Below are positions 16,701 to 46,638 of a DNA stretch of 64,000 nucleotides, in pieces; the first letter of the stretch is position 1, and every line of letters starts with the position of its first letter. Below the pieces are notes generated by a model. That model did not search any database and had not been told where the DNA came from. It worked only from the letters and a program-made list of their open reading frames with translations. Both the position numbers and the translations under genes were made by a program. Source of the DNA: Nitrospirota bacterium (GTDB lineage Bacteria > Nitrospirota > Nitrospiria > Nitrospirales > Nitrospiraceae); NCBI GenBank assembly GCA_963703955.1, contig CAVPGK010000013.1:64001-128000 (forward strand), given 5' to 3'.

Positions 16701-16748
16701 GCAGCGCATTAGACGAGTCGATTAGAAAAGTAGAATGTTCCTGTTTTC
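16701..16748 (+). repeat. Junction motif copy (degenerate)
   Basis: GCAGCGCATTAGACGAGTCGATTAGAAAAGTAGAATGTTCCTGTTTT resembles the copies at 18228, 30950 and 34113. Confidence 0.7.
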
Positions 16749-16777
16749 TCGTTCAAGAATAGATATTCCTCCCGCAC

Positions 16778-17995
16778 TCACTTGGGTGCCGTGATCGCAT
16801 CCTGGGCCACGTGGCCTCTCATGGACTTTTCGATGATGTTGTTTTCAATTTCCCAGGCGATGACGCGAGCAAGCTGGTCAGCCGAGAGTGCGCCCATGGG
16901 CAGTCCCTTCGTTTCCGCATAAAACGGGTCGTCCGGAGCGGCCGTCCGATACGTATTCACCAAAATCGTGGCCGGTTGAATTGTTTCACTGCGTTCCCCC
17001 ACCAACACAGATTTGTCTTCAGGGAGCACTCGTGTTCGGGTGGCCCAATCCCGCTGATCGATTTTGACAAACGACACGCTCCAGATTTTTCCATTGAGCA
17101 GGCTTCTGACCGCTTTCGGGGTGTGTTCCCAAAAATAAGGCTCCCGCACGATCCTCTGCAGGGCTTCACGGACCCGAATATCATAAAGCTTGATCGTGGA
17201 ATCCGGTTGAGTCGACGGAACCCGTGTGGTGGTTCCAACTTCGTAAAACGATTGACCCTCCAGGCTCTTCTGGTCATCCACGGTTCTCAGATAGGTGTCG
17301 AACAATTGTTGAAGGTTTTGGACACGTTCGTCCCCCGACATCCCCCGAATTCCTGTGTCTGTGCGTATCGGGGCCTGCTTGAGATCTCGTTCGACCACGA
17401 CGGTTTTGGATTTTTGGGTAGTATCTGCTTTACTGACGACCCATTGGAACTCTCTGGCCAGAACCGGGACAAGTTGTTCGGGATGGCGCAGATACCCTTT
17501 CTCCTTCAGAGAAGAGGCACTGATCAGTAGTTTGACCCGGCCTTGGTCTTTCGTTCTGGCGACCAAAAACGGGAATTCCTTCCCGTCCCGATTGACGACT
17601 GTGGGTTCAATGATGATCTTGTCGAGCACACCTTTCTTCACGGCTTCTTCGAATCGTGGATAGTCGGTCCGATGTTCCAGCATGAAGGTGAAGGCATCAA
17701 TGACGGTCTGGACGGCCGCCTCGGTCTGGGTCTGGTCCAGTCCCCCGCCTTCCGCCGTTTCTTTTCCTGTATCCAGGAATACTTGAAAGGATGCGCCCGG
17801 GATCGGATATCCTGGTCCGGTTGTCTCATGGGCCTCTTCACCCGCATGACTTTCATGTCCTTGATGGCTTGCGCTCGCCAGTGGCACGAGAACGGCCAAC
17901 CACCCGATCACCAAGACGGACAATCCTGTGTGTCTGATCCAAGAGCCGACATCATCACCAGTTACCTGATGTTGCTCTCTAGCGACCTTCTCCAT
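16778..17995 (-). CDS. Hypothetical exported protein with internal duplication
   Basis: 405 aa; GGAGGAG RBS; TM/signal segment followed by a His-rich stretch; repeated motifs QLVPVLAREFQ and QLARVIAWEIE. Confidence 0.75.
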   Translation of the reverse strand: MEKVAREQHQVTGDDVGSWIRHTGLSVLVIGWLAVLVPLASASHQGHESHAGEEAHETTGPGYPIPGASFQVFLDTGKETAEGGGLDQTQTEAAVQTVIDAFTFMLEHRTDYPRFEEAVKKGVLDKIIIEPTVVNRDGKEFPFLVARTKDQGRVKLLISASSLKEKGYLRHPEQLVPVLAREFQWVVSKADTTQKSKTVVVERDLKQAPIRTDTGIRGMSGDERVQNLQQLFDTYLRTVDDQKSLEGQSFYEVGTTTRVPSTQPDSTIKLYDIRVREALQRIVREPYFWEHTPKAVRSLLNGKIWSVSFVKIDQRDWATRTRVLPEDKSVLVGERSETIQPATILVNTYRTAAPDDPFYAETKGLPMGALSADQLARVIAWEIENNIIEKSMRGHVAQDAITAPK

Positions 17996-18227
17996 GTTCT
18001 CCTCCTTCGACGAAGAGACCCATCCCCAAAGAGAGACCGACCGGTCTCCTGTTGTGATTCTATACCTTCTCGTATCGCTTTGAGAGAAGGAAGAAAAGGG
18101 AGTGGGCAGCTGGCGGGGTTGGGGCGAACGGAGGTGAGGCGGCTTCAGAGCGAAACGAGTTCTGACACCGTTTCATCTTCCGGAAGTGAAAGACCGCCCT
18201 CGCTACCGGAAGTAATTTCCAGAACCT

Positions 18228-18273
18228 GCCGCGCGCGGACGAGTCGAACGAAAAAGTAGAATGTCCCCGTTTT
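18228..18273 (+). repeat. Junction motif copy
   Basis: GCCGCGCGCGGACGAGTCGAACGAAAAAGTAGAATGTCCCCGTTTT. Confidence 0.8.
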
Positions 18274-18338
18274 CTGGTCCGCGCTGTCGTCATGCCCGGC
18301 CTCTTCGATCACGCGACGCGCTTCGAGCGCCGAAGCTG

Positions 18339-18808
18339 TCAGGCCGCGTAGCCGCCATCGATGGCTAAGCTTGCGCCGGTGATGAAGCTCGCGCCCGGAC
18401 TGGCCAGGTAGGCCACGAAGTCGGCGATCTCATCCGCATGTGCGTAGCGCTGTAGGGCGATGTATTCCCTGGCCTGCTTCGCGAATGCGCCCGAAGCAGG
18501 GTTCATGTCGGTATCCGTGGGACCCGGTTGCACGTTGTTGATCGTGATGCCGCGCGGGCCCAGATCGCGCGCCAGGCCTTTGGTCAGCCCTGCGACGGCG
18601 GCCTTGGTCGCGCATAGAGCGTAGATCCCTAGTGCTTGCCTCCCGCTACCTCAATGGCGCGGACGACTTCGTCGGCCTTGTCGGGCGACGCGCTGTAGGT
18701 CAGCGCCACCGCCGCGCCGTCGGCCGCCAGCCGCTTGGCGATAGCCGCGCCGATGCTGCGCGATCCGCCGGTGACCAACGCGACCTTGCCTGTCAGTGTC
18801 TTTGACAT
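18339..18808 (-). pseudogene. SDR oxidoreductase with internal deletion
   Basis: N-terminus LTGKVALVTGGSRSIGAAIA and C-terminus YATKAAV...NVQPGPTDT...FITGASLAIDGG are separated by only about 30 nt; the central part is missing. Confidence 0.8.
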
Positions 18809-19204
18809 GGTCTTCCTCCCTCCCGCCCTTCGCCATTGTTTATTACCGGATGCGCCTTCTCAACCGGCAAGTTCAGACCTATCCACAATTGCTTTCATTT
18901 GGGTCAACGTTATCAAAGAGGATACGCGATGTATCCCTTTCGATAAGAGGAAAATGCCCTCATTTCCGTCGTCTTTTTTCTTAATCTGTTCCCGTACACT
19001 CCTCATTACACAACAAATCAAGATGATAACTAATACTGCCATTACCATAAATATGCTCACCGTTTACGCGGCATTCGAGTTGCACTTTCTGAATGACAGG
19101 TAGCACAGCAGCGAGGCAACAAGGCCTTCGCTGTACGAGCCGCGAGCCGGCCATGACTGAGAACCTGAGGAACCCAGCACTCACCAATGGAAAGGGGTAC
19201 GACT

Positions 19205-20056
19205 ATGAAACTCACGGAAACATCATTCATCGTTGACGCCAATCAGTCGGACACATTCCAGGCATTCGAGAGTTCTGGTGCACACGACTGCAATGGCAGC
19301 GTGATCATCACAGAGGTGCAGTTGGCCTCCGGTACCGTTCTCAGATTTGTGGATGAAGGCCGCAGCATCGGCAGCGACACGGACGAGGGTGGGGTTGGGG
19401 TGATAGAAGTGACCGCGCCCCAAGCCCAAGCTATTCTACCCACAATGCTTCGTGAATACGGCCCTTCACCCCTGGAAATATTTATGGCCGCGGCCCCAGG
19501 GACCAGCGCACCGGACAGACTTGTCAAAGACCACCGCCAAGCTGCAAAGCTTCGTCAGACCCTCTCGCCGACGCCGCGTACGCTGAAGCTCGTGTCCTCC
19601 CTAGACCACGCAAAAGCCTACGTGCCGGCGCACATTGTGGCGGATCTGTCTCCCAAGCATGGATTGGAAGTCGACTACTGCCTTGGTCTTGCCGGCGACT
19701 ACCATTTCGACTTCCGATCGATGGAAGCCGATGTCTTCGGACTGCAGCTCAGCGAGCATGGCCATGGTCACAATCTGGATCATTCGCACTATGGCGTGAC
19801 GGGGGTTTCCTCTCGACGCGCACTGGGCGTCTGTAATGCTGGTGGATACGTCAAGATGGTTAACATCCAGTACCAATGGATCCAGGGAGTGTGGATCGAT
19901 GTCCCCATCGCACAGAACGGTTCCAATACTCTTTTTCCGCATGTGAGCCTGTTCTATTACTCCGATAGCTGGCCGGCGGCCTACCGATACCGGATCAAAG
20001 TCGCCTTCACGGCGATTGTGGACGGGAACATTGTCCACACTGAAGGCAGCTGGTAA
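19205..20056 (+). CDS. Hypothetical protein
   Basis: Long ORF (19187..20056) with an AAAGGGG RBS before ATG 19205; no family recognised. Confidence 0.65.
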   Translation: MKLTETSFIVDANQSDTFQAFESSGAHDCNGSVIITEVQLASGTVLRFVDEGRSIGSDTDEGGVGVIEVTAPQAQAILPTMLREYGPSPLEIFMAAAPGTSAPDRLVKDHRQAAKLRQTLSPTPRTLKLVSSLDHAKAYVPAHIVADLSPKHGLEVDYCLGLAGDYHFDFRSMEADVFGLQLSEHGHGHNLDHSHYGVTGVSSRRALGVCNAGGYVKMVNIQYQWIQGVWIDVPIAQNGSNTLFPHVSLFYYSDSWPAAYRYRIKVAFTAIVDGNIVHTEGSW

Positions 20057-20316
20057 GAGAGCTTTGGACTGTGAGATGAATGCGGAGCACGACGCCACTT
20101 ACAGCCCTGGTTTCCTCGGGGAGCGGGTGAAAACATTCGGGGTAGGGGCAATGGTCACCAATGGTGATCAGACCCTCACCCCGCCTGGCCTCAGCGCCGC
20201 CGGGCACCAGCCTCATGGCTATCGGCTGCTCGCACCGAGCTGCCGGAGATCGCCGACGTGATGTCCGTCCTTAGATATGAGGCTTCTTGGGTGGCCCCGG
20301 TGAGGAGAAAGGGATT

Positions 20317-20715
20317 ATGAGCGCAAGAGCGGATTTCAAAGTTTTTCAATTCACCGAACATCTCGGTGACAAGGAAGGCGATATCGATACCGACTTTACC
20401 TTCATGGGTACGTTGTCGTCGGAGAAGATATTTGAAATTAACCAGCAGCCATTTGACGCTGGCTTTGTCGAATATCATGTCTCCCATGTCGACGACCTCG
20501 CCCATGAAATATTAATCAACGGAAAGCCACTTCCCGGAGTCGACGTGATCAGAACCGGGCAAGGTACACACGCCGGCCATCAAACTCATACAGATGTCAT
20601 TCCGTCCAGCTTCTTCAAGAGAGGCAAGAACACCATTCGGTTTCAAAGAAAAGGCGGAGACAACTTCCTCATTCATCATGTCATTGTCCACTGGCGGGAA
20701 CTCGATCCTTCGTAA
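20317..20715 (+). CDS. Hypothetical beta-sandwich protein
   Basis: RBS-like GAGAAAGGGA; HEILINGKPL...KRGKNTIRF...DNFLIHHVIVHWRE. Confidence 0.65.
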   Translation: MSARADFKVFQFTEHLGDKEGDIDTDFTFMGTLSSEKIFEINQQPFDAGFVEYHVSHVDDLAHEILINGKPLPGVDVIRTGQGTHAGHQTHTDVIPSSFFKRGKNTIRFQRKGGDNFLIHHVIVHWRELDPS

Positions 20716-20857
20716 AACCCACGCATTGATACTGGAGTAAAGTCTGGACCTGCCAGTCCTCTGTCGCAGCCCAGCGGGATTTGCACGCGCCTTCGAATCA
20801 CGAAAGACATTCTATGAAATCATGATAGGCGAAGATCCCAGGGCCAACCAGTCCGTG

Positions 20858-21307
20858 TTACCCGGCTTCGACCGTGACCTCTGTGGTCACTGAGTTGGCA
20901 ATAAAGCATTCGCTGTGGGCCCGCTCATGGAGTGCGGCAATCTGCTCAGGAGTCGGACGTGTCGTCCCACCGAATGCAACCCGAGGATGCAACACGACGC
21001 GCGTGATGGCGAGCTTGCCCTTCTGATTCTTCTCCAGAAATCCAACGGCATGATCACTGTAGTGATCCACGACAAATTGCTTCTTGGCCGCCACCGCCAA
21101 GAAGGTCAGCATGTGACAGCTCGATAAAGCCGCGACGAGACCTTCCTCAGGGTTCACATGAGCAGGATTCCCACGATAGGCAGGTGCCGCTGATGCAGGC
21201 ACTCGCACACCACCTTCAAAGGTCACCATGTGATCTCGATTGTAGGACTCGTACGAAAAGCTTTCTGATTCTCTCTTCCATTCGAGCGTGATCTTATGTT
21301 CAGACAT
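20858..21307 (-). CDS. OsmC/Ohr-family protein
   Basis: NPEEGLVAALSSCHMLTFL; AHSECFIANSV. Confidence 0.9.
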   Translation of the reverse strand: MSEHKITLEWKRESESFSYESYNRDHMVTFEGGVRVPASAAPAYRGNPAHVNPEEGLVAALSSCHMLTFLAVAAKKQFVVDHYSDHAVGFLEKNQKGKLAITRVVLHPRVAFGGTTRPTPEQIAALHERAHSECFIANSVTTEVTVEAG

Positions 21308-21385
21308 CGGTCGAACCTCCTCTCAAGATTACAATGCGCTAATCAATCGAACGCGCCTGGGGGACGAGGCGAACGAGTCCGGGGA

Positions 21386-21766
21386 CTAGTCGGGCTCGCG
21401 GCAACAGATTTCCAGACGATTGCCGCTGGGATCTTCGAAGAAGACGGCATAGTAGTCCGCGTCTTCGTACGCCGGTCCTTCGACATTCCGCGCACCGGCC
21501 ACGACGGCGATCGCGGCCAATCGATCGACCTCGCGGAGGCTGTCGGCTCGAAACGCAATCCGGCACTCGTTGGCGACATGCTGCGGCGACTCCGTCACTC
21601 CGACAAACTCGGTCGCACCATCGATGCCGGCAACCTCATACTGTAACCACCCCTCAACCTTGGCATCTCGCGTGAACCCGAGCGCGGGCAAGAGCATCTC
21701 ATAAAACGGTCGCGCCTCGGCGAGGCTACGCACCCGGAGATCAACGTGATCGAAACGACGTCGCAT
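21386..21766 (-). CDS. VOC/glyoxalase-family protein
   Basis: FDHVDLRV...YYAVFFEDPSGNRLEIC. Confidence 0.9.
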   Translation of the reverse strand: MRRRFDHVDLRVRSLAEARPFYEMLLPALGFTRDAKVEGWLQYEVAGIDGATEFVGVTESPQHVANECRIAFRADSLREVDRLAAIAVVAGARNVEGPAYEDADYYAVFFEDPSGNRLEICCREPD

Positions 21767-21801
21767 CAGAGGAACATCAATTCAGATCGCCCGACGAAGG
21801 C

Positions 21802-21831
21802 TAGGCTACTGCTGGAGTTCTACAGTGTCAA
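21802..21831 (-). promoter_or_regulatory. Sigma70-type promoter, paralogous to 30880..30910
   Basis: Minus strand TTGACA-N17-TAGCCT; shares CTCCAGCAGTAGCCTA with the 30.9 kb copy. Confidence 0.65.
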
Positions 21832-21930
21832 CGAGAGCGATCCTGGCCGCGTGCAAATGAGGAACGTGTGCCACTGGAATGGAAGAACTGATCAGAAAAC
21901 CTGAACCCCCTATTTCCCTGATCAGGCGTG

Positions 21931-22521
21931 TTAGCGCACCGCATTAGCTTGGACAAAGAGGGCTTGTTCGAGGGTGCGGAAGAAGTGCTGGTAGGGGCCG
22001 GGCTCTTCGATTGCCCGAAGATAGAATTGCGCGCTGGCACGGACGATAAGTTGGGACTCTCCGCGTGCGCGGACCGTCACAGTGAACCGCACGAGATCAC
22101 TGCGGTGCCAGAATGGCCCCCACGTTCGGTAGTTGCGTGTGAGGAAGAGCAGCGTATCCGGACGGTACAAGAGATAAGACGGATCTACGCCCTGCGGCTG
22201 TTCCAAATCCACGAATTTCTTGCCAGAGACGATCCCTAGATCTTCATCCAGCACTTCGACCTTAAAATCCAGGTCCTGCATGGTGGATACGATGACTTCG
22301 AGCATTCGCCTGCGGTCGGCGGTGTCAAAAATCCGCGTTTGGGCCGCCCGCACTTTGACCTGGCTTGCTTCCGACAACCAGATCTGCTCACGAGCGTTCC
22401 ATTGGTTCTCGTGCCGCCACTCGTAGGGGGAACAGCCTTGGAGCAGGAGCGCATAGATGAATGTGACCCCTATATAGAAGGAAGTTGCGACACGTCGCAG
22501 CGTGCGGGTCAGAGCGCTCAT
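21931..22521 (-). CDS. Hypothetical lipoprotein (paralog 3)
   Basis: Lipobox LLQGC; QTRIFDT...MQDLDF...YQHFFRTLEQALF. Confidence 0.75.
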   Translation of the reverse strand: MSALTRTLRRVATSFYIGVTFIYALLLQGCSPYEWRHENQWNAREQIWLSEASQVKVRAAQTRIFDTADRRRMLEVIVSTMQDLDFKVEVLDEDLGIVSGKKFVDLEQPQGVDPSYLLYRPDTLLFLTRNYRTWGPFWHRSDLVRFTVTVRARGESQLIVRASAQFYLRAIEEPGPYQHFFRTLEQALFVQANAVR

Positions 22522-28997: not shown

Positions 28998-29384
28998 CTA
29001 CTTCCCGCCTTGGACAGAAAGTTCCCAGCGATAGCCGTCGGGATCGTAGAACCATAAGCCCATGTGAGGTGAGCCGGGCGCCTCCGGACCGATTTCGTCG
29101 CCCGGATCTTCCACCTTGACCTTGTGCTTCTTCAGGTGCGCAAGCGCCTTTCGTAGCGTGGTCATGTTCGGCAGATGAAACGACATGTGCCCAATCGTTT
29201 TCGGTGACGGCTTCCCCCTCAACAAGACGATCGTCACGTTATCGTTGCCGACGGCGACACCTTCTTCAAATTCGAACTCTTTGCGCAACCCCAATACCCG
29301 CATGAACCATTCCGCGCTGCGCCGCGGATCCCGGACTGCGAGTCCGAAGTGGCCGACCGTACCGATGGTGAACGGTGTTTTCAT
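28998..29384 (-). CDS. VOC-family protein
   Basis: GHFGLAVRD...HMSF...DPDGYRWEL. Confidence 0.85.
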   Translation of the reverse strand: MKTPFTIGTVGHFGLAVRDPRRSAEWFMRVLGLRKEFEFEEGVAVGNDNVTIVLLRGKPSPKTIGHMSFHLPNMTTLRKALAHLKKHKVKVEDPGDEIGPEAPGSPHMGLWFYDPDGYRWELSVQGGK

Positions 29385-29389: not shown

Positions 29390-29806
29390 CTACCTTCCGC
29401 GATCGAGTGACTTGATCGGCATCTTGATCATCTCACCTTCTTGCGAGAGCAGGAACACCAGCAGCTTGGCCGGTTCCGCTGTACTGGCGTTCTTCGACGC
29501 GACATGAGGCTTCTTGGGAGGCTCATACCAGCTCTGACCTTTTGTATAGGTCATAGGTGGCTCACCCTCTAATTGAGTGACCACAGTCCCCTCCAAGACG
29601 TAGGCGAACACCGAACCTGGATGGACATGCGGGGCGGATGCCGCTCCCGGCGCATAGTCCACCGTCAGAACCGTGGCCACTTTTCCGGCCATATCGGTCA
29701 GGCTCTGCTTCATGAGCACCGACACGGAATCTTCTGCCAGCACAGGCGTCTGACCCAGCACGAGAATCGCTCCAGCCAGTGTGATCGGTGTCCGTGACTG
29801 TCTCAC
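29390..29806 (-). CDS. Exported cupin-domain protein
   Basis: YAPGAASAPHVHPG...YVLEG...WYEPP..PH. Confidence 0.85.
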   Translation of the reverse strand: MRQSRTPITLAGAILVLGQTPVLAEDSVSVLMKQSLTDMAGKVATVLTVDYAPGAASAPHVHPGSVFAYVLEGTVVTQLEGEPPMTYTKGQSWYEPPKKPHVASKNASTAEPAKLLVFLLSQEGEMIKMPIKSLDRGR

Positions 29807-29875
29807 CAGCCTCCGGGCAGCGAATGCGATCGTGATCAGGGGACTATTCCTTTCTCGCTCAGATCGTCGTGTCCA

Positions 29876-30998: not shown

Positions 30999-31004
30999 GG
31001 TCCA

Positions 31005-33007: not shown

Positions 33008-33017
33008 TCACAATCAC

Positions 33018-33058: not shown

Positions 33059-33085
33059 ATTCAACAAATTAACCTTGCCACCTTG

Positions 33086-33101: not shown

Positions 33102-33110
33102 ACTGTCTGT

Positions 33111-33442
33111 GTGGAGGCGACGCCGAAAGAACTACACATCTACGTGACGGCAAGCGGCCAATCCCCGTTCAGCGACTGGCTGACACGTTACAAGATGGTA
33201 AGGCACGTGCAAAGATCCGGGTGGGGCTCGATCGAGTCAGTCTTGGAAATATGGGGGACTGTCACGGAGTCGGTGACGGCGTCCAGGAACTGCGGATCGA
33301 TTATGGCCCAGGCTACCGTGTGTATTTCGGCCAGCTTGGCTCGACCATCGTCCTGCTGCTTTGCGGCGGCGACAAGAGCACGCAGACCAAGGATATCGAT
33401 CTTGCAAAACAATATTGGAACGACTATCGGAGGCGCACATGA
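33111..33442 (+). CDS. RelE/HigB-like addiction-module toxin (frameshift near 33185)
   Basis: SPFSDWL...GNMGDCHGVGDGVQELRIDYGPGYRVYF...LLLCGGDKSTQ. Confidence 0.9.
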
Positions 33443-33732
33443 AAAAGAGCAAGGCCTATCAAGCGGGACTGATCGAGAGCCTGCGCAATCCCGGTGAGGC
33501 CGAACACTATCTTAATGCGGCGCTGGAAGAAGATGACCCGGAGCTGTTCCTTCTGGCACTACGGAATGTCGCAGAGGCCCAGGGCGGGCTCGCGCAGCTC
33601 GCCGACAAGACGAAACTCAACCGCGAGAGCTTGTACAAGATGCTCTCCGAGCGGGGCAATCCTGAACTGAGAAGCCTCGATGCTCTCCTCCATGCGTTAG
33701 GGTTCCGCCTCGCCGTAGCCAGCTCTCGCTAG
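33439..33732 (+). CDS. Addiction-module antidote (HTH)
   Basis: YLNAALEE...LNRESLYKMLSERGNP. Confidence 0.9.
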   Translation: MKKSKAYQAGLIESLRNPGEAEHYLNAALEEDDPELFLLALRNVAEAQGGLAQLADKTKLNRESLYKMLSERGNPELRSLDALLHALGFRLAVASSR

Positions 33733-33949
33733 CTCGATCGGTGCAAGTTTGGCCTCGTAGGGCAGGCGAAAATGGTTCCTAACACCTTATTCACAGCGCA
33801 TAGACTCAGGTTCGGCGCAGCTCGATCGACATAATCTCATCGCAGGGGCGGTTCGCAGCGCACGCGGGCCGATTCAAGAGCAGGCGATTGGTCGGACACC
33901 CGGGACAGCTCAGATGGCATTCAGCAAAAAAGTGTTTGTCTTCTCCCTA

Positions 33950-34110
33950 TCAAAGATCTGGAGAAGCGCCGCGCTTCGTATGCCAGAGCGCAAGGATCTC
34001 GACCGTCATGGGCTCGGAAATCACACGATAGTACAGATGGTAATGGAGGCGGAGAAATGAATGCAGCGGACACCGGCCAGCTTGACGTTTCGAGCCTGCG
34101 CGCTTGCCGT
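33950..34110 (-). pseudogene. 5'-truncated RelE/ParE toxin remnant
   Basis: ARNVKLAGVR...YHLYYRV...VEILALWHTKRG; cut off at the 34113 motif. Confidence 0.65.
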
Positions 34111-34112
34111 CT

Positions 34113-34152
34113 CGCCGCGCGGACGAGGTAAAGATAGAATGTCCTTGTTTTT
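34113..34152 (+). repeat. Junction motif copy
   Basis: CGCCGCGCGGACGAGGTAAAGATAGAATGTCCTTGTTTT. Confidence 0.75.
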
Positions 34153-34158
34153 GGTCCA

Positions 34159-35340
34159 TCACCCGTCGAGACTCGGGCGAAGGAGAAACGGTCCGTAGAC
34201 CACAGCGAACAGCAGATAGGCGCCGCTCCACCCAACCACAGCCAACCCGAGTACGAGATTCGTCGGGAGGCCAGTCGTCGGCCCGATAACCCTCAGGAGC
34301 GCACCGAGAGTGACCAGCATGTAGATCAAGACCGTCAGAGGACCTGCGTGCCGGGGGCGCCCCGTATGGCCCAAGCTGGCGCGGGTCATCACGGCCAGAG
34401 TCATTACGCCCACTGCGCCGGTTGTGAGCGCATGTACCGCATCCTCCTTCGGCAGACCAATCCCGAGAATCGAGCATCCCAATAAAAGCAGCGACAACAC
34501 CAGCCAGGCATACCCCAGATGCAGAATCAACACCAACGGCTCACGCCACGTGATCCACCCGTGCCAACGCAACAGGCGGCCCAGATTGACCAACCCACCC
34601 GCGATCAATATCCAACCTGTCACTATAGCCTGCGGCTGAACGATCCAGGCTACAGCAGCGAATCCCACCAGGACGACCGACAGAGCATCGTAACGAGAAA
34701 AGGGGGCAGGCTGTTCGGTCCTGCCCTGCTCAATCAGAAGGTCGCCGGTAAAGCTGGGCGTGACCCGCCCACCGATCAGTGCCAGCAGCACCATGACCAG
34801 CGCGAGAGCCATTCGCTCGGGGAGATCCGTGGCCGCGCCGCTCAGGGTCAGCACGTGGAACAGGATGTTGGCGCCGGCATACAGACTGATCAGCCCTCCC
34901 ATCGGCGCATGGAGCCAGCTCTTTCCTGCTGCAATTTCTCGCCAGACGACCCCCGCCACCGCGACAAGAAAAGACGCATCCACGATGGCAGACACGAGAG
35001 GCGTGAGCCGCGGGATGGCGATGAGCACGCGTCCGGCCATCCACAAGGTAAAAAGCAGCATCAGCTCATGTCCTCTGATCGGCGGACGATCGGTCCAGTT
35101 GGGAATCGCCGTGAGCAGGAAGCCAGTGATCACCGCGGGCAGAAATCCGAAGACCATCTCATGCACGTGCCAATCCCGCGCCGGGTAGAGAAATTCCAAG
35201 TCGCCGACTCCAGCAAGAGCGAGAACCCAGGCAGGGAGCGCCACGCCGGCAAACACCGCCGCACCGAGAAAGAACGGTCGAAATCCATACGAAAAGACCG
35301 CTGGTCCCTGGTAGCCAGTCTCGCTCGTGGCGTTGGTCAT
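34159..35340 (-). CDS. nnrS: NnrS-family membrane protein (NO response)
   Basis: GFRPFFL, WHVHEMVFGF, GFLLTAIPNWT, IGGRVTPSFT, MTRASLGHTGR. Confidence 0.95.
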   Translation of the reverse strand: MTNATSETGYQGPAVFSYGFRPFFLGAAVFAGVALPAWVLALAGVGDLEFLYPARDWHVHEMVFGFLPAVITGFLLTAIPNWTDRPPIRGHELMLLFTLWMAGRVLIAIPRLTPLVSAIVDASFLVAVAGVVWREIAAGKSWLHAPMGGLISLYAGANILFHVLTLSGAATDLPERMALALVMVLLALIGGRVTPSFTGDLLIEQGRTEQPAPFSRYDALSVVLVGFAAVAWIVQPQAIVTGWILIAGGLVNLGRLLRWHGWITWREPLVLILHLGYAWLVLSLLLLGCSILGIGLPKEDAVHALTTGAVGVMTLAVMTRASLGHTGRPRHAGPLTVLIYMLVTLGALLRVIGPTTGLPTNLVLGLAVVGWSGAYLLFAVVYGPFLLRPSLDG

Positions 35341-35396
35341 ACGATCGTCAGTCCTCAGTCATTGTGCAGAACGAGGTGTGAAACCGAAGCTTATGA

Positions 35397-35633
35397 TCAG
35401 GCAGCCTTGAGGATCGCCTTTCGGACGGACTGAGGCACTGTGATGGGGAGAAAGAAGCGTTTCGGATAGAGATAGTCATTGCCTGATTCATCGATCACCC
35501 GAACATGGCCATGTCTGGCGGCGCGAGGATCATGGAGAGAAACGTAGATCTTTCTCTTTTCTAGGGACACGGTATACCCTTTGTTCTCGACACAGATGAG
35601 CAAGCGAGCTGATGCGGCTTTAGTCTTTCTCAT
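35397..35633 (-). CDS. Small conserved protein (putative antitoxin/immunity partner)
   Basis: ICVENKGY..SLEKRKIY...RVIDESGNDYLYP..FF; follows a truncated partner gene. Confidence 0.7.
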   Translation of the reverse strand: MRKTKAASARLLICVENKGYTVSLEKRKIYVSLHDPRAARHGHVRVIDESGNDYLYPKRFFLPITVPQSVRKAILKAA

Positions 35634-35643
35634 GGCTGAGCCT

Positions 35644-35711
35644 CATAGAAACCTTTTGACCTTGTATTCCTTCCGACCGATTCCTGTCGCTTCGTACCAG
35701 TGGACTTCAGC
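35644..35711 (-). pseudogene. 3' remnant of the partner gene
   Basis: Translates AEVHWYEATGIGRKEYKVKRFL* and is joined directly to the truncated hicA. Confidence 0.6.
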
Positions 35712-35888
35712 CAGGTGCTGGAACGGTTACGGGAGGACAGCTGGTACCTGGTCGCCACGAAGGGAAGTCATCGACAGTTTAAACATCCGACGAAGCCTGG
35801 TCGAGTCACTGTTGCAGGCAAACCGAGCGACGATTTGCCTCCGGGGAGCTTGAATAGCATCTTCAAGCAGGCCGGTTGGAAGAAGTAG
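35707..35888 (+). pseudogene. hicA: hicA duplicate lacking its original promoter and first codons
   Basis: Matches the first copy from TCAGCCAGG onward; an in-frame GTG at 35700 comes from the neighbouring remnant. Confidence 0.75.
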
Positions 35889-35898
35889 GGAATACGCC

Positions 35899-36111
35899 AT
35901 GCGCTACGCAATCGTCATCGAAAAAGCCGCATCAAATTATGCCGCCTATGTGCCGGACTTGCCTGGATGTGTGGCCACAGGCGCCACGATTCAGGAAACC
36001 GAAACCTTGATCCGCGAAGCGATCCAATTCCATCTGGAAGGTCTTCGAGCCGACAGCCTGCCCATCCCTCCACCCAGCAGCCAAGTGGAGTACATCGAGG
36101 TCTCCGCCTAG
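35899..36111 (+). CDS. hicB: HicB antitoxin (duplicate)
   Basis: Same protein as 32149..32361. Confidence 0.9.
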   Translation: MRYAIVIEKAASNYAAYVPDLPGCVATGATIQETETLIREAIQFHLEGLRADSLPIPPPSSQVEYIEVSA

Positions 36112-36482
36112 ACTCATCTTTGCCTCATCTTATTCGCCCGAAAGACACACGCGCATGCCATCAACCGCCGCGAGCGGACGAGCCGAAGCGGATTCATGAT
36201 ACTTTTCCCAGCTCACGCCTTCCCTTTCTTTCTTAGCGGCTTCAACTCCGGACGTAGCGTATCAATCAGCTCGACTTTGGCGCGGCGGATCTGCTTCAGG
36301 AACTTTTGAATCGCCTTAATTTGTTCTGGGTGTTGCTCCCCGTGTACCGCACCCGGTTTCTTGGACATTTTCTGGTGCTAGTCAGCCCGACTTCTGGTCG
36401 GGTCGCTTGACGATCGTGGCTCCTAGGGCAAATATGAGCGTCGATTTTTGCGACATCGTGAACCATGCTGCCTCTCCTGCGA

Positions 36483-37374
36483 TCATGCCGCCCTAAACGG
36501 GTGCGCGTCGGCTCGAGCTTGCACGGGCGTGCGGTGACCCAATCGTTCAATCAACCACTGAGTGTTGTACCGCTCGATGAACTCCGCGATGAAGCCCCGT
36601 GCCTCTTCGAGACTCGGGAACTGATGCAGATACAGACACTGCTCCTTGAGCGTGCGCATGAACCGTTCGGCCACTCCGTTGCATTCGGGCTCGCCGACAT
36701 AGCTTGGCGAGATCGTGATGCCAAGCCATTTGACCTCGTTGATCCACGCCGCCGCGAGATACTGCGGTCCCCAATCACAGCGCAACCGCAGGCCCCGTGC
36801 CATCTCCTTGGCAAACGTCCCGTAGGCATAGCGGACTCCCTGGCGGATCGGCTCCAGCGCCGCCCACCGATCGCCGATCTTGGCCACATGCCACCCGACC
36901 ATTTCATCCGTATAGTGATCGACGGCCCCAAAGAACCAGCACCAGCCGTCCCGCTCCGTATAGAAGCGGGTCGCATCCGTGCCCCACAGGACGTCGGGAC
37001 GGTCCGTGGTGATCGTGCCGTCGTGCGCGGGGTTCCCATTGGGTGGGCCCAACCGCCGGGGCGCCAGCAAGCCCTGCTGGCGCATCAGCCCGCAAGACGC
37101 GCTTGCCGCCCACGGCGATCCCACGGTGCGCGAGGCGTGCTCGGACCTTGCGGTATCCCTCGCCATGAAACGGACAGCTCGCCAAGACCGTCCGGATCCC
37201 GGCGATGACCTCCGCATCACTCCACCGGGTCTGCGGACCGCGCTTCTGCAGGGGCCGCGTCGATGGCTGAGGGCGTCCCCCAGCGTACACGCTGGAGCGC
37301 GCTACCCGGTAGACCTCACAGATGAGCCGCAGCGGGTAGCGGCGTCCCGTGCCGGGGCTCACACCGCTTCTCAT
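36483..37374 (-). CDS. Transposase OrfB (rve/DDE), frameshift near 37090
   Basis: GEGYRKV; WGTDAT; RCDWGPQY; PECNGVAERFMRTLKEQ. Confidence 0.9.
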
Positions 37375-37729
37375 GGCTTGCGCTTCTTCCACTCGTCCAC
37401 GAGCCCCCTTCAATGAGGTCTTCCGCGAGCTCAAGCCGCATCGTCAACTCCCCGATCTTGGCCCGCGTGCGGATTAACTCCCGGTCTTCCGGCTCAAGGT
37501 GCCGCTTGAGCCCGCGCATGCCGGCATCCAGAAACGCGCGTTTCCAACTCTCCAGTTCATGGGCCGGCACCTGGCTGTCCCGTGAGACGCTGTCGAGGGA
37601 TTCCCCGCGCAGCACGCGGAGCACCAGCTCCATCTTGCGCGGGGCACTCCAGCGCTCCGGGAGATCCTTCGGCTCCGAGTTCGTTGCGCAGTCGTCTGCT
37701 GGTGTGGGCTTCTGCGAGGTGGTTTCCAT
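37371..37729 (-). CDS. Transposase OrfA (HTH)
   Basis: ERWSAPRKMELVLRVLRGESLDSVSR...AKIGELTM; GGAGG RBS. Confidence 0.85.
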
Positions 37730-38087
37730 GTCCGACCTCCTTGGTCACCGTATTGTGAGCTAATTCAGTGTCCAAAGAAACCGGGTCCGATTTACCCGTA
37801 CAACTCAGCGTGCGCATGGGCGATCGTAACCCCGTGAACAATGTCATGCGGTGTGGAACGGATGGGAAGTTTCTTGTCCTCGCTCATAGCCTTCCGTTTC
37901 TACTCTCAGAATACGAGCGCGTCAAGAACGAGCCAGCTATGTCTACCAAGAATCACGCCGGACGCGGTGGGCGGCTGGCGGGCTGGAGAGTCTGATCAGA
38001 TCGAAGGTCCTGACACCGTTTTCTTTCGCCCAGGCTCAAAATGGTTCTAGATACCCAACCTACATTGGGTCAAAACTCAATTATTTT

Positions 38088-38555
38088 TCAGAGAAGCAAG
38101 TCGTCTATTTTCTCTATAACAGCTTTGGCCTTGGCATGATACTCAATAACATCATTTAGTGTGAGGGTTACGGGATTTCCATGTGCTAATGCATTCTTGT
38201 TGGAACAGATGCTATCTAGAGCATACTTGGCATCCTGAGGGAGTGAGTTGATCGCGTTGTTCCACGAACTATTACCAAACTTCCCGAGCAAAGCCTTGAC
38301 ATTTTGAATATCAGGGTTTCTGAAACTAGTACGGACCGATTGTTCTATAAAATTGCTGACCTCTGGCTTCCCTAATTTTTGCGCCATTTCGTTGATTATT
38401 GTTTCAATGCTTTCTTCGTAGATACCTGAAATAAAGACAACCAAAAATCTTGCTAGATATGCCCGCTCGGCGGGAGAAGCAGAAGTAAAACTCTTTATCT
38501 CGGTTACTGCGGCATCGATTTGTAGAAGTGCCCTTTCCGCATCTCGCGATTTCAT
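38088..38555 (-). CDS. HEPN-domain protein (RiboL-PSP/MAE_28990-like)
   Basis: FLVVFISGIYEE, FRNP, and KNALAHG (R/K-x4-H motif). Confidence 0.8.
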   Translation of the reverse strand: MKSRDAERALLQIDAAVTEIKSFTSASPAERAYLARFLVVFISGIYEESIETIINEMAQKLGKPEVSNFIEQSVRTSFRNPDIQNVKALLGKFGNSSWNNAINSLPQDAKYALDSICSNKNALAHGNPVTLTLNDVIEYHAKAKAVIEKIDDLLL

Positions 38556-39619
38556 TCTGAAAATGTTGCGATGGCCATCTTGATTCTACCCTGCACCTGA
38601 TCAATATCTGTTGTCGAGTCTGAGACGGCCTCTTTAAAAGCTTCTTGCGCAACAAGCTTTTCATACTTTTTCTTAGCATCACTTATCTTATTGGAACCAA
38701 TATCCGCCACGGCAACCATTATTGCATCGAAAAGCGCTACATTAATTCCAGACTTTAACCGAAAAGCTTTTGGTCCGAGTTGCTGAAGAATAAAGTCCGT
38801 GGTGCTTTTGAAAATTGTCTCAAGCTTGGCTTTCTTCCTTCGGTGGGGTTCTTGTTTTCTCTCATAAACTCACTAATGAAGTCTTTCATGGGCTTCTTGT
38901 AGTGTACCCAACCTTCTTTTAGGGCAAAAAACCTTAACATCATCTCGATATCCTTCATTCGTGAATCAGGTGATGATTTATTTAAGAGGGTCCTCCAGCT
39001 TACATGGTTATTTAGATCTTCAAGAAATTTATTAAGGCTACCGCTAATTACACAATTTCTTATCTCTTGAAGGGTCAAAGCCATGCCGCCCGTATTGAGG
39101 CGCTCGAAAATTTCAAAAACACTCGAGTGGTCTTGCGGATCTGTTTGTTCGAATATCGTAGCTCTCAGAATTGAGTTTTTCAGTTTCCTCTTGTCCTGTT
39201 CGCTCAGGTCAGAATATGATTTCCCCTCCCATTCCTGCTTCACACTGGTTAACCGAAATGGAGTGCCATCCTCAAAAGTTCCTCGAAGGAAATAGTAAAT
39301 TGTTCGCAACCTTTGTTGGCCATCAACCACCATCAAGTCTTGAGTTTTTTCCTGCCTATATAGAAATATTTGGGGAACCGGTAGCCCAAGCAAGAAAGAC
39401 TCGATTAATTTACTGGCTTTTTTGGTAGTCCAGACATATCTGCGCTGAAAAGGGGGGATAACAATTTCATTGTCTTTTACTTTCAGTGCCAGTATTTCGA
39501 CAGTGAAATCTGTCCCGTAAGTATTGATTTTGTGGGAGAGCCAACATCTTCAAATCCTGGTCCTTTTCTTCCGAAAGAATATTTTCTAACTCGACAAAGG
39601 ACTCGTTTTGGTTTTCCAT
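38552..39619 (-). CDS. DUF262 (ParB/GmrS-like) protein, frameshifts near 39535 and 38830
   Basis: PPFQRRYVW, LIESFLLGLPVP, VVDGQQRL, IFERLNTGG; its stop overlaps the HEPN ATG (ATGA). Confidence 0.88.
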
Positions 39620-39900
39620 GTAATTATTCTACACTTGTAAATGAGAAATTGTCTTGGCCGATACTCCCCTCTTCCGAGATCATGATCGGATTGAGGGAAG
39701 GGGTGCGGGGACATTCTTCTTATCTGCTGATTACGATGAAAATTTCGGTTTCAGGCTACGACTCGCTGCGGCGGCTGTCAACTCACCGAATTGTCGAAAT
39801 ACAACCATTTCCGTTGTTCGGCATGCAGTCACCCGCTCACGCACCAAGGCCCGCAGGACTCCTGTCCTCCCAGGCCATATACATTGACCGAGCAATATAA

Positions 39901-40031
39901 ATGGTCCCTCCAAGCTTGCTCGTTTCGCCCCTAACAGGGGTGGCCTGGATTAGTCCCCAACTGGCACGTCGAACGACACCACAGCTTTATCGTGGGGGTT
40001 CCGTGCGCAAAGGGACTGACCAGGCCGCCCC
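39901..40031. repeat. Intergenic hairpin repeat (MITE/REP-like)
   Basis: GGGGTGGCCTGGATTAGTCCC (39937) pairs with GGGACTGACCAGGCCGCCCC (40012); resembles a repeat I associate with Nitrospira genomes. Confidence 0.55.
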
Positions 40032-40039
40032 ATCTCTTA

Positions 40040-40618
40040 CTAATTGGAGATTACCCCGGGCGCCTGGAGGCGGCTGAGACAGTCCAGCCAGAGTGTGGCC
40101 GGGTCCTTGTCAAAGATGCCGATCGAATCTGGCGGTAACACCGCCCACGCCCCCTGGCGCATTTCATATCCGAGCTGCCCCGGAGCCCACCCGGCAGATC
40201 CGGCAAAAGCCCTGAAGGTTTCGGTCGGTTTGGCCTGCGTAATGATGCGTTCCAGGAGCGTAGGCGTGCCCCCCACATAGACCCCATCGAAGACCAATCG
40301 CGCGTCTGCGGGAGGCTCCTTGGCTTTGAACAGCAAAAGAAGGCGGTTCGGCTCTACGGGCCCACCCGCAAACAGCCGGTAGCTGGTGCCCTTGAGCACG
40401 GTGACCTCCGGCAACGCCTCCGACAGGAGGACGTTGGTAGAGTGATTCAGAATAAGCCCGAGTGTTCCCTCAGGTCCGTGCTCCACAACGAGCACGACGG
40501 CTTGGCGGAAGTTCGGATCATCCAGCGTGGGGCTGGCCACCAAGAGGACGCCTTTCCCGACCGACGACGGCTCGAATTCCATCCCCGCCAGAGCCGGTAG
40601 GGCATGCAGGATGGTCAA
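40040..40618 (-). CDS. YqgE/AlgH-family protein (start uncertain)
   Basis: LLVASPTLDDPNFRQAVVL; GGPV; AGWAPGQL. Confidence 0.9.
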   Translation of the reverse strand: MTILHALPALAGMEFEPSSVGKGVLLVASPTLDDPNFRQAVVLVVEHGPEGTLGLILNHSTNVLLSEALPEVTVLKGTSYRLFAGGPVEPNRLLLLFKAKEPPADARLVFDGVYVGGTPTLLERIITQAKPTETFRAFAGSAGWAPGQLGYEMRQGAWAVLPPDSIGIFDKDPATLWLDCLSRLQAPGVISN

Positions 40619-40747
40619 GAGCGCCCCGAGCAGGAAGCTCGCGATGGCCCTCCGTGCACCAGCGGGACTCGGCGCGCTCGAGTACTCAAGACGGAGGCAG
40701 CATGGGGAAAGCGTATGAGGGACATTCTACATTTCATCCGGAACGGT

Positions 40748-41980
40748 TCAGTCCGCGTGAAGTATGTTCTTTGCCACATAAGCGGCAATCAGGCGATGCG
40801 TGAAGGCGTTCGGATGGCTGTCGTGCTGATGGAGCTCATACTTCGCATTGGGAGAGCTACCCTCATAATCCGGAATAATGTCCGAGACCAGATGAACACG
40901 CACGTGCTGGTTCCGGAAGCCTTCCAGTACGTGGGAAAGAAATTGGAGATAGTCATGGTCATGCTTGCGGAACATATTGTCCCAGAGAATGACATGGAAC
41001 TCGCTCCCTGGATACATCCGTGCTGCAGTGTCCTTGGCTTGGGACACGACGCCGAGAAACAGTTCGACGTCCTCGCTGGACAGGCTTCGCAATGGACTCA
41101 CCAGTTTGTTGTAGATGGATGATTTTCTCAAGATCTTGGACAGGGTATGACCGACTGGCCCGAGCGAGCGCCAGAACTGTTCGATCTGCGAATAGCGGGT
41201 CTCATCCGCTACGGTGTCAAAGTTACCCTCGGCGATCACGCCCCCACTGTCCGTTCGCCGGTATCGCGGTGCGTGTGGGAACCACGTCATGAGCCCCGCC
41301 ACTCGCTCGATGTGATAGGGGATTGCCTGGTAGATGAGGTGTTTGGGTGGCACCGTCACGACAGCATGGACCAGCCCTCCCTCCAGCGCCGCCAACATCT
41401 GCTGAGGACCATAGCCATGGAAGCCGAAATTGTAAATGGCATAGCGCCCATGCGTCAGCAGCCCAGTCATATAGGGCATGGCCTCATTGTCGGCAACCCC
41501 TTCACCGATTGTGTAGGAGCAACCGAAGAATAGGACCGATCCAAGGGCATTTCGGACATCGTATGGAGGAGCTATGCGTAACCCATTCACATCAAAGGTG
41601 TAGGTGGTCTTGTAGATGGGAACCGAGTTAATCCTCTTCACATGGGTCGCCGTATAGTTCTTCCGAGGGATCATCCCCAAGTCGTCGTCGGAGATCCAAT
41701 AGGGATCCTCGCAGCAATACGAGTTGGTCTTTTGCGGCGTGCTGTTCCATACATAGAGTTCACCCAATGCGAGGGCCAACACTGCGGCGCTCAGGTTTAG
41801 CCACACCGCCTTCGATACGGAACCTCTCGCGGTGAACTCAAGATAGAGCAGGGCCAAAAACCAAATCGTGCAGAACCATGCAAAAGGGACGGATGGTGCC
41901 TTGAGGGAAGCAAAAACGGACAGGATCGCGAGACCAAGAACGGCGAGAGGCCGAAATGATTTGCTGGTGCGCTCAGTCAA
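40748..41980 (-). CDS. Membrane-anchored SGNH/GDSL-like hydrolase
   Basis: FFGCSYTIGEG, YNFGFHGYG, DSHPN; N-terminal TM helices. Confidence 0.75.
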   Translation of the reverse strand: MTERTSKSFRPLAVLGLAILSVFASLKAPSVPFAWFCTIWFLALLYLEFTARGSVSKAVWLNLSAAVLALALGELYVWNSTPQKTNSYCCEDPYWISDDDLGMIPRKNYTATHVKRINSVPIYKTTYTFDVNGLRIAPPYDVRNALGSVLFFGCSYTIGEGVADNEAMPYMTGLLTHGRYAIYNFGFHGYGPQQMLAALEGGLVHAVVTVPPKHLIYQAIPYHIERVAGLMTWFPHAPRYRRTDSGGVIAEGNFDTVADETRYSQIEQFWRSLGPVGHTLSKILRKSSIYNKLVSPLRSLSSEDVELFLGVVSQAKDTAARMYPGSEFHVILWDNMFRKHDHDYLQFLSHVLEGFRNQHVRVHLVSDIIPDYEGSSPNAKYELHQHDSHPNAFTHRLIAAYVAKNILHAD

Positions 41981-45055: not shown

Positions 45056-45416
45056 TCAGGCTTCGACGAGGACCTTGAATCCGCCGTAGACCATGCGCTT
45101 GACGTCGAAGGGCATGTCCTTCGGTCCACCCATGCTTGCGATGCGCGGGTCCTTCATCACCTTCGCGTTGACGCGATCGCGATGCGCCCGCGACTTGAAC
45201 ACGATGTAGGAGAACACCACCGTCTCGCCGGGCTTCAACTTCATCATTCGCGGGAACGGCACCCCACCTTCGCCTTGAGGTCGTCGCCGACGCATTCCTT
45301 GTAGTCGAGCGCGCCGTGCTTCGCGCCACACTTTGCTCTCCCTTCTGCGCCATGCGGAGATAGGCCTTCAGGTTCTTCTTGGGTACGGGCAGGACATATC
45401 CATCGACGTATCGCAT
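45056..45416 (-). CDS. DUF1428 (YbaA-like) protein, frameshifted
   Basis: YVDGYVLPVP...ETVVFSYI...MPFDVKRMVYGGF. Confidence 0.85.
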
Positions 45417-45431
45417 GTGAACTCTCCTTTC

Positions 45432-45959
45432 TTACGTTTCAGTTATCGCTTTCAAGTTGGCGAGGCCTGTCTCGAAGTCTTTGCCGATCATTTTGTCGCA
45501 ATCCATGAAGAGGCTCATCAACTTCCCTATGTAGGGTTGAGGTCCGTGCATAGCCCATGTGACCTGGGTCGAGTCGCCTTTGGCGTCCAACTTGTATTCG
45601 ACGATGTTGTGGGCATCGAATGGTTCGATCATATCCAGCGCGATCGTGATCTTGGAAGGAGGAGCGGTGTCCGTAATCGTCAAGCGTCCCTTGCCTACTT
45701 CCTTGTTGCCATCGAATTGATAGACGGCACCCTTGCCGTTTGGTGCACCGCTGATAGCTCTCTTCATCGCGGGGTCTTTCTTCTCATAGGGCGACCAGGA
45801 CTCCGACTGATGGAAATCGCTCAGGATCGCAAAGATCTTCTCCGGCGGTGCTTTGATGCTGGCCGAGCGCTGGACACGGAAGGTGTCAGGCTTGGTGGCG
45901 GCGTATGCGAGCAGCGCGGCGACCAGACCGAGGGTAATGAGAGCGAGTGTCTTGACCAT
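45432..45959 (-). CDS. SRPBCC polyketide-cyclase-like protein
   Basis: FRVQRSASIKAPPEKIF...WSPYEKKDP...DFETGLANLK. Confidence 0.9.
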   Translation of the reverse strand: MVKTLALITLGLVAALLAYAATKPDTFRVQRSASIKAPPEKIFAILSDFHQSESWSPYEKKDPAMKRAISGAPNGKGAVYQFDGNKEVGKGRLTITDTAPPSKITIALDMIEPFDAHNIVEYKLDAKGDSTQVTWAMHGPQPYIGKLMSLFMDCDKMIGKDFETGLANLKAITET

Positions 45960-46016
45960 GGGTTCCTCCGTTACGATGTAAGATTATGGGATAGCAGTGA
46001 CCCGGGCGCAGCACGC

Positions 46017-46433
46017 CTAGTTCGGCTTCTTGACCCCCATGTCGCGGAAGCGTTCGATCTCTTTACTTGGACCGAAGTCCTCCAGTTCGAACAACTGACG
46101 CACTTCGATCTCGGCTTCCTTGCCGTCGACCGCGGGGTTGGGAAAGCGCTTCGTCCACTCAATCGCCTCTTGCCTCGACTTCACCTGGATGAGGGTATAG
46201 CCCGCGATGAGCTCTTTCGTCTCGGCGAACGGCCCATCGATCATGGCGTGTTTCTTTCCGGAGTACTTGATGCGCCAGCCCTTCGAGGTTGCTTGAAGCC
46301 CGGAGGCATCGACCAGCACACCGGCCTTCTGCAACTGCTCATGGTACGTTGCCATATCCGCAATGAGTTGTTCGCTCGGCATCACGCCGGCTTCCGAATC
46401 CTTGGTGGCTTTGACAATAATCATGAATCGCAT
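46017..46433 (-). CDS. YciI/DGPF-family protein
   Basis: DGPFAETKELIAGY. Confidence 0.92.
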   Translation of the reverse strand: MRFMIIVKATKDSEAGVMPSEQLIADMATYHEQLQKAGVLVDASGLQATSKGWRIKYSGKKHAMIDGPFAETKELIAGYTLIQVKSRQEAIEWTKRFPNPAVDGKEAEIEVRQLFELEDFGPSKEIERFRDMGVKKPN

Positions 46434-46506
46434 GACGCTCTCTCCATTGGTTTCGGCTTCAGAGCCGGGCTTCCGGCCCGACTGGCTGCCCCGGGTTCTA
46501 CTACTT

Positions 46507-46532
46507 GTCGAACGAGGGTCCCGAAATCGACA
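46507..46532 (-). promoter_or_regulatory. Putative ECF42-dependent promoter
   Basis: Minus strand TGTCGA-N16-CGAC upstream of the DGPF gene; matches the ECF42 consensus (-35 TGTCGA, -10 CGA/TC). Confidence 0.7.
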
Positions 46533-46638
46533 GGGGTTATGAACCGGGACAGACTATTTTTCCTATCCCTTACCGCTTATCTGGAGCGTCGTTCTTACAT
46601 CGTGAGAAGGTTGCCTGTCCTATTTCTCTTTCCAACCA

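Follow-up and report, generated by a model that had tools for sequence, protein, structure and literature searches.

Between positions 16,701 and 46,626 of the stretch presented above, copies of a short bipartite motif lie at the borders of genes and small gene modules, which raises the question of whether the motif marks the sites at which these modules are exchanged and, if so, which enzyme acts on it. The window, i.e., the whole 64,000-nucleotide stretch, corresponds to contig C13:64001-128000 of genome G000 of a Nitrospirota bacterium (3.3 Mb in 28 contigs, 82% complete). An initial annotation had proposed that the boxes may be the crossover points of a cassette-like array served by an enzyme in trans. 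The cassette architecture is real and well supported: homologous modules begin and end at a conserved GC core, and their neighbors change there, as the comparison of arrays among relatives reveals. The second half of the motif is, by its sequence, the terminal inverted repeat (TIR) of TIRtrons, i.e., the end-repeat of the Y1/HUH transposases named TIRYTs. The modules change neighbors at a core plus a solo TIR, and we hold it about evenly balanced that a TIRYT encoded elsewhere builds the junctions and moves the modules.

The GC core spans 14–18 bp. The GC box is exact at 18228, 30952, 32417, and 36167 and carries three mismatches at 33020 and 34112; at up to three mismatches, nine matches stand against 3.25 expected, and three of the nine (42057, 48476, and 50208) are unrelated. 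The motif model and genome scan that the annotation had recommended were built on a core weight matrix trained on relatives only, in which a strong site scores at least 20 bits, and such sites occur at four places in the whole of G000, all inside the window. Decay has put the core at 16701 beyond the reach of the matrix (−20 bits); its 17-nt spacing to the TIR equals that at 18228 and 30950, and a soil contig carries a better core at the homologous place. Hence, among the eight sites originally listed, four are exact, those at 33018 and 34113 are decayed, and the one at 16701 is retained by spacing, while the site at 21846, with −3.7 bits and no TIR behind it, was rejected as a junction. A decayed core that the annotation had missed (21352-21372) ends an OsmC module exactly as in G616. 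The single orientation of the boxes at module borders recurs in the one-way core arrays of relatives, and the motif, rather than being spread genome-wide through conserved syntenic regions, forms one cluster with breaks at the core. An Rfam search of the window returned no match.

In a species-representative collection, the full bipartite pattern occurs at six places, four of which, in Nitrospirae, Nitrospira, or Nitrospiraceae, show the same junction, and two of which are alphaproteobacterial and apparently unrelated. The core pattern is present in 21 of 251 family genomes, G000 included, with a few single matches that have no TIR behind them; within one genus, 23 of 85 genomes have it, for which control matches numbered 0. 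In a phylum sample, 14 of 401 genomes match the core at one mismatch; multiple copies are confined to four genomes of the own family, and single matches elsewhere are at about the control rate. Among viral contigs, there is one chance-like match, in coding sequence. Array regions were taken from nine relatives first and from 12 more later as a held-out set; together with the window, these 22 genomes hold 135 junctions, and 14 of them have four or more. The first set comprises 99 junctions and 88 units with a median length of 846 bp, counted after leaving out sites far from the clusters (G158 56883 and 59768, G265 29743, and G116 1157) and weak ones (G213 18053 and window 48478). Orientation of the core is one-way, by 98 to 4 in the first ten regions, which were used for training the matrix, and by 36 to 0 in the 14 held-out regions. 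The copies are mostly clustered on one contig, often to the left of algH, and in some genomes are found on two or three contigs; algH lies beside the array in 8 of the 11 first regions including the window and in 2 of the 14 held-out regions, many of which are short. The cargo includes glyoxalases, OsmC, antiporters, toxin-antitoxin pairs, and dehydrogenases, encoded on both strands (114 versus 57 predicted open reading frames, ORFs).

Synteny breakpoints, which the annotation had suggested examining, concentrate at the core across relatives in both the first and the held-out set. Each module opens with a TIR facing into its cargo and closes at the next core. Where junction pairs from different genomes of the first set share the end of the left unit, the same unit follows in 5 of 59 cases, and where two units share their start, the end is shared as well in 26 of 52. 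Of 293 cross-genome alignments inside arrays of the first set, 104 stop no more than 30 bp behind the start of a core (random mean 7, maximum 19); the held-out set gives 28 of 105 (random 3.4, maximum 10). Adjacency is kept in 29 of 313 junction comparisons, whereas comparisons made mid-module keep it in 123 of 147 cases and those at intergenic points other than junctions in 45 of 103; these latter points serve as the control because genes end in intergenic DNA anyway. The nominal p of 1e-13 for this contrast is overstated since kin and shared modules are not independent. Bases from −4 leftward follow the left unit, and those from about +18 follow the right unit. True order changes that go beyond deletion are seen between the modules of G116 and G240, and near-identical modules are common to different genera.

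Environmental sequence adds to this comparison. The soil search covered four runs, all of assembled contigs with patchy cover, the best of which contained 0.30 of the window words. One contig joins window position 16680 via a core-like stretch to 32432, i.e., the left-end junction onto the ribD-like module; the join is weak because it depends on a single contig of depth 2 with 85% likeness and 47 letters on its short side. At 18228 and 34113, the assembled junctions are each spanned by another contig.

The second half of the motif, which is either the TAGAATGTCC or the TGACACC box, connects the array with a known element kind. On the opposite strand, the window A and B boxes are GGGGACAT and GGTGTCAG, one letter off GGGG[AT][CG]A[CG], the TIR consensus of the TIRtrons and TIRYTs described by Di Nocera et al. 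2013 (PMC3733652). The A and B boxes belong to the TAGAATGTCC and TTCCTGACACC box families, respectively, and both match TIR families around intact genes. In G050, an A-box inverted pair surrounds a 217-aa protein (P0001) with an HUH motif and a PF01797 match, relatives of which are present in 111 of 201 family genomes. Among 100 full-length Y1 loci with flanks, which include some elements counted twice, the same TIR family stands on both sides in 79 (D 35, A 16, C 16, B 9, and E 3). All TIRs in the window are solo, and those at junctions face one way. The box TAGAATGT(C/T)C follows the cores at 16701, 18228, 30950, and 34113, a TGATACC-type box follows that at 33018, and a decayed version follows that at 36165; within 20 nt of the core at 32415 there is no second box. 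In agreement with the annotation, lone boxes were located at 18157, 33770, and 38004 and inverted ones at 39709 and 40720; the inverted pair, which is decayed, lies at 46546/46613.

With looser patterns, a recognizable TIR is found at 47 of the 135 junctions, and four families occur behind the same core. Family A stands at one offset in 15 of 19 cases; the offset stays within 1 nt in 16 of 18 cases for B and in 9 of 9 for C, and D is found once. The distance from the core start to the terminal CCCC is about 35 bases in families A, C, and D. Within 300 bp of intact TIRtrons, the core at 20 bits or more occurs at none of 100 loci. The fixed offsets of several TIR families, together with the absence of the core from intact TIRtrons, suggest that the inner edges of TIRs were joined to one sequence, unlike what random decay would give. 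In this orientation, the DNA after a TIR corresponds to the DNA outside an element, so that each module would consist of a TIR plus its outer flank. The core was also considered as an insertion target of intact TIRtrons, an idea that was rejected since none of these 100 loci and none of 158 Y1 loci reaches 20 bits.

TIRtrons and TIRs, here and in relatives, show several further features. The C-terminus of P0001 and its relatives reads RPRGRP, which we take to be an AT-hook-like motif and which could bind the A/T tracts bordering the TIRs; the stop codon often lies within the TIR. Short tandem duplications at the outer TIR edge of intact elements (L066, L068, L112, L117, and L119) may be a footprint of the enzyme at work there. 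Almost the same base is where TIRs are interrupted by recurring foreign ends resembling insertion sequence (IS) termini in G616 (18764), G213 (19384), and G595 (17436), and similarly in L045, L129, L050, L106, and L113; given this recurrence, TIRs seem to be insertion hot spots. An internally deleted A-type TIRtron with ends like those of L123 and L124 lies near a contig end of G000 (C28:29560-29730).

We propose that a TIRYT acting in trans would bind the TIR on single-stranded DNA and cut just inside it, whereupon the TIR and the DNA outside it would be joined to the 3′ side of a core. If two junctions in succession were cut, a unit of core, TIR, and cargo would be freed and could re-enter at another core, leading to reordering and duplication without an integrase. 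For the core at the far end of newly captured cargo, one guess is a target duplication by microhomology-primed repair. The chemistry is proposed by analogy with the TnpA-REP of E. coli only; that enzyme cleaves and religates single-stranded DNA at a dinucleotide adjacent to its repeat (PMC8266576). The TIRYT may be gained and lost again, so that arrays like that of the window are left to decay. TIRYTs are assigned to TnpA-Y1 subclass 2.1 by Quentin et al. 2018 (10.1101/279083), which occurs in 14.9% of strains and is among the largest RAYT-related subclasses (10.1101/279083). RAYT group 1, to which TIRYTs correspond, is held to be the most IS-like group of true RAYTs (PMC5581495), which is consistent with an enzyme that visits genomes and is lost. 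In a wider and more tentative version, to which we give somewhat less than an even chance, TIRYT families share one attachment core, capture outside DNA, and excise and re-insert core-bounded cassettes from a family-wide pool.

A number of observations weigh against a TIRYT as the agent. No intact Y1 gene was found in G000 at its 82% completeness, only two short remnants and the one deleted element; G158 and G265 (95% and 92% complete), which have the longest arrays, have no Y1 match; and no TIRYT lies in the array regions of the first and held-out sets. Thus, the suggestion of a RAYT/Y1 HUH enzyme in trans stands as far as the second box is the TIR of a RAYT-related Y1 family, while a role of the enzyme in the shuffling is a proposal. 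Within one genus, TIRYTs occur in 13 of 23 genomes with the core versus 25 of 62 without it, a co-occurrence that is not significant (p 0.22), and the lack of a 20-bit core in all 158 Y1 loci points the same way. Strict TIR patterns match at 29 of 99 junctions, i.e., the core outlasts the TIR, which would be odd if the TIR still served for binding. The array region is unstable anyhow, as the 44% adjacency at other intergenic points indicates, and variants within the core travel clearly with neither side. A join expected of an excision circle, for which the annotation had proposed to look, occurs in none of the four runs of assembled contigs with their patchy cover. In addition, the cross-genome comparisons are not mutually independent, alignments were counted both ways, and the regions were chosen for holding the motif. 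The TIRYT literature, in the parts available, gives no biochemical assay and no demonstrated substrate or role.

Several of these points would fit a history in which a TIRYT made the core-TIR joints once and all later reordering was left to host recombination or slippage between direct repeats of 14–22 bp. Cores that are kept while TIRs decay, long arrays in genomes with no Y1 match, tandem duplications ending at cores in the window and in G265, and the many broken cargo genes of the window agree with such a course; against it, repeats so short are generally known as poor substrates of homologous recombination, the order changes between G116 and G240 are more than deletions, and near-identical modules in different genera require precise entry, so that we place it on the unlikely side. 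The core itself might instead be recognized by another enzyme, such as a tyrosine recombinase, an IS110-type enzyme, or the mobilizer of a dispersed hairpin, with the TIRs riding along. This would account for a core common to four TIR families and to TIR-less junctions; at some sites (G257, G623, G240, and G618) the core forms one hairpin arm, a hairpin form of the site stands ahead of the DUF1579 gene in four genomes, a dispersed repeat family has the letters GCGCGCG..CGAG in common with it, and G000 has 22 PF00589 matches. However, no recombinase gene is common to the arrays and flanks (there is one IS30 and one group II intron reverse transcriptase), an integron integrase exceeds the cut-off in none of five genomes, and the fixed core-to-TIR spacing would be left unexplained, which makes another enzyme distinctly unlikely. 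No IS110 or IS91/ISCR was named among the 143 array and flank proteins scanned, a scan that included no genome-wide search aimed at them. In the window, the annotation was right that neither a RAYT/Y1 nor a tyrosine recombinase is encoded; an IS3-like DDE element is present.

Two further explanations dispense with a cassette system. The array may be what decay has left, as solo ends, of successive TIRtron insertions into an unstable region, as TIRtrons do cluster, several per few kilobases, and as a core-less cluster of solo TIRs on contig C14 would suggest; the core, conceivably a relic of TIRYT 3′ ends (the RPRGRP codons), is also slightly more alike to them than shuffles are (13.8 versus 11.3), with one good case, L071. 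Random decay would nevertheless not be expected to yield one orientation (134 versus 4) and a fixed spacing, the core is absent from intact TIRtrons, modules end at it, and the adjacency test largely refutes such a graveyard, which we regard as highly improbable. The GC box might also serve the neighboring genes as an operator or terminator, an idea that draws on its intergenic position, often 70–290 bp upstream of a minus-strand gene, and on several cargo genes being stress or detoxification genes. This idea is hardly credible in view of a box that follows the left-hand gene at its 5′ end in 59 cases and at its 3′ end in 39, in fixed orientation, is confined to one cluster, and truncates a gene; in the two scanned stretches (window 16400-22200 and 29500-41000), no junction falls on a terminator-like site or a sigma-70 promoter.

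The nearest known arrays are those of integrons, which comprise an IntI integrase, an attI site, and attC sites with RYYYAAC...GTTRRRY boxes. The likeness lies in the tandem co-oriented sites, the modules of one to a few genes, the toxin-antitoxin and stress cargo, and the reordering of shared modules; the difference, in an array with no recombinase beside it and cargo on both strands. IntI (TIGR02249) exceeded the cut-off in none of five genomes including G000, and the attC box pair is found at none of the 135 junctions, which upholds the statement that the sites are not attC. In IS91/ISCR elements, an HUH enzyme moves the DNA next to a single end by one-ended rolling-circle capture; the array has no such transposase, and in its units the next core defines the far end. 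TIRtrons are the source of the likeness in the second box, which is close to the published consensus, and relatives carry a Y1 HUH gene within an inverted TIR pair, whereas none is present in the window or G000. Solo, dimeric, and grouped TIRs have already been reported (PMC3733652); here, in contrast, solo, co-oriented TIRs of four families keep a fixed spacing to a separate core and bound reordered modules, and the available TIRtron literature describes neither a cassette array nor such a core. REPs and BIMEs with their TnpA-REP (RAYT groups 2 and 3) are similar in that a related HUH enzyme acts in trans on distant repeats (PMC8266576), but REPs are genome-wide palindromes in hundreds of copies without cargo (PMC8266576), while the core has four strong copies at one locus and is mostly non-palindromic, with a clear hairpin only at a few DUF1579-side sites. 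The nearest printed idea concerns the subclass 2.1 transposases beside prochlorosin clusters, which were proposed to diversify a gene cluster, conserved distances being read as the trace of the enzyme (10.1101/2020.03.09.984088). In that case, transposase genes and fragments lie inside the clusters, inverted repeats were not found, a single gene family makes up the cargo, and the authors later saw no strong evidence for causation (10.1101/2020.03.09.984088).

The array is thus integron-like in its working yet no integron, and it uses TIRtron ends yet is no TIRtron. Its novelty is the conserved core and the shuffling measured at it, the TIRs themselves being a known element kind; searches of the open literature, which excludes subscription papers, turned up no description of TIR-bounded cassette arrays. 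With the array, a precise candidate substrate (core, linker, and TIR) and a predicted cut zone are at hand, and relatives encode matching intact enzymes; what TIRYTs do therefore becomes directly testable. If the proposal is true, integron-like shuffling has two origins, the second of them based on HUH chemistry, and software that seeks IntI and attC overlooks such arrays.

At its left end, the window array adjoins an ECF sigma gene with a junction at 16700-16747 that consists of a decayed core (16704-16717), a 4-nt linker, and an A-type solo TIR; this and all junctions and TIRs up to 38026 are on the plus strand. The gene of a 405-aa protein with no Pfam match (16778-17995, minus strand) lies between two junctions. 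A B-type solo TIR (18157-18173) follows a second leader type (GTGGGC..GCTGGCGGG) without a GC core at 18100-18175, and the junction at 18226-18273, which an independent contig bridges, has a full core (32 bits), a linker, and an A-type TIR. An OsmC module (20858-21372) that ends in the decayed core mentioned above is a cassette in G116, G214, G240, and G616 as well. The glyoxalase gene (28998-29384, minus strand) is a core-bounded cassette in several relatives and has no junction left beside its window copy.

The nnrS-hicAB module is present twice, and both copies are delimited by junctions. The left limit of copy 1 has a full core (33 bits), a linker, and an A-type TIR (30950-30999), and its right limit is a core without a recognizable TIR (32415-32436); copy 2 begins at a shortened core with an A-type TIR (34110-34153), which an independent contig bridges with no differences, and ends at a core with a decayed B-type TIR (36165-36206). 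The limits of the repeat at the cores are 30956/34116 and 32435/36185, in line with the annotation; however, it is no plain duplication, as the copies differ inside. Copy 1 (31005-32361) has an internally deleted nnrS (minus strand), which lacks about 560 bp, a spacer, and hicAB (plus strand), while copy 2 (34159-36111) has a full nnrS (minus strand), a different spacer with a 78-aa ORF, a 5′-truncated hicA, and hicB (plus strand); the spacer of about 300 bp between nnrS and hicA is unlike in the two. Contigs from two studies skip nearly all of nnrS (window 31031 to 31618/35336) with the same 23 letters between and only 25 letters on the short side. Between the copies lie a frameshifted RibD_C/DHFR-like gene (32496-33008, plus strand), a decayed core with a B-type TIR (33018-33057), a frameshifted RelE/HigB-like, Gp49-like toxin with an HI1420-type antidote (33111-33732, plus strand), and a B-type TIR (33770-33791) behind a GGCGA linker, the core of which is unrecognizable (33748-33791). 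Domain matches confirm RibD_C, HicA/HicB, and the Gp49-like toxin with its HI1420 antidote. The ParE-like 3′ remnant (33950-34111, minus strand) does end at the 34110 core, as was claimed; its Pfam match is weak (E 0.052, below the cut-off).

To the right of copy 2, the IS3-like DDE element with an rve domain (36342-37788, minus strand), which has a second copy on contig C6, is a later insertion. HEPN and GmrSD-like genes come after a B-type solo TIR (38004-38026), which lies behind the second leader type (37967-38026). The TIR at 39705-39810 (minus strand) is an inverted one of the A type whose inner stretch is conserved; it also stands to the right of arrays in G116, G213, and G265 and contains a leftward promoter-like pair visible by eye and not called by the promoter scan. 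The algH/DUF179 gene (40040-40618, minus strand), a frequent right-hand neighbor of arrays, has another inverted A-type TIR upstream (40716-40736, minus strand), and a decayed inverted pair of D-like TIRs with no gene between lies at 46546-46625.

At both window positions as well as in G213, G265, G198, and G266, B-type TIRs stand behind the second leader type, which is conserved (GTGGGC..GCTGGCGGG..GAGGCGGCT..CAGATCGAA); 111 bp around this leader are duplicated exactly in G213, and it is possibly a further junction class. The cluster on C14 (5300-8800) holds co-oriented solo TIRs of the A, B, and D types with no GC core, near which repeated 3′ fragments of an exonuclease III-like gene, named from a reading of the sequence, come to an end. 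Some group II introns target attC sites, and in G198 the gene of a group II intron reverse transcriptase (L176:6491-7735) lies directly behind a junction with a shortened TIR. Defense-type genes near arrays include the HEPN and GmrSD-like genes (window 38088-39393) and AbiTii (57658-58278), and cGAS with SAVED near the array of G213 (L179:9322-11706). Outside the array, two more direct repeats of about 180 bp and 78 bp, about 90% alike, are found at window 54901-56256 and 56513-57528. A dispersed long-hairpin repeat at window 39895-40030, of which the genome has about ten copies with a conserved inner part and variable outer arms, forms mosaics around algH in relatives, and its arm resembles the GC core.

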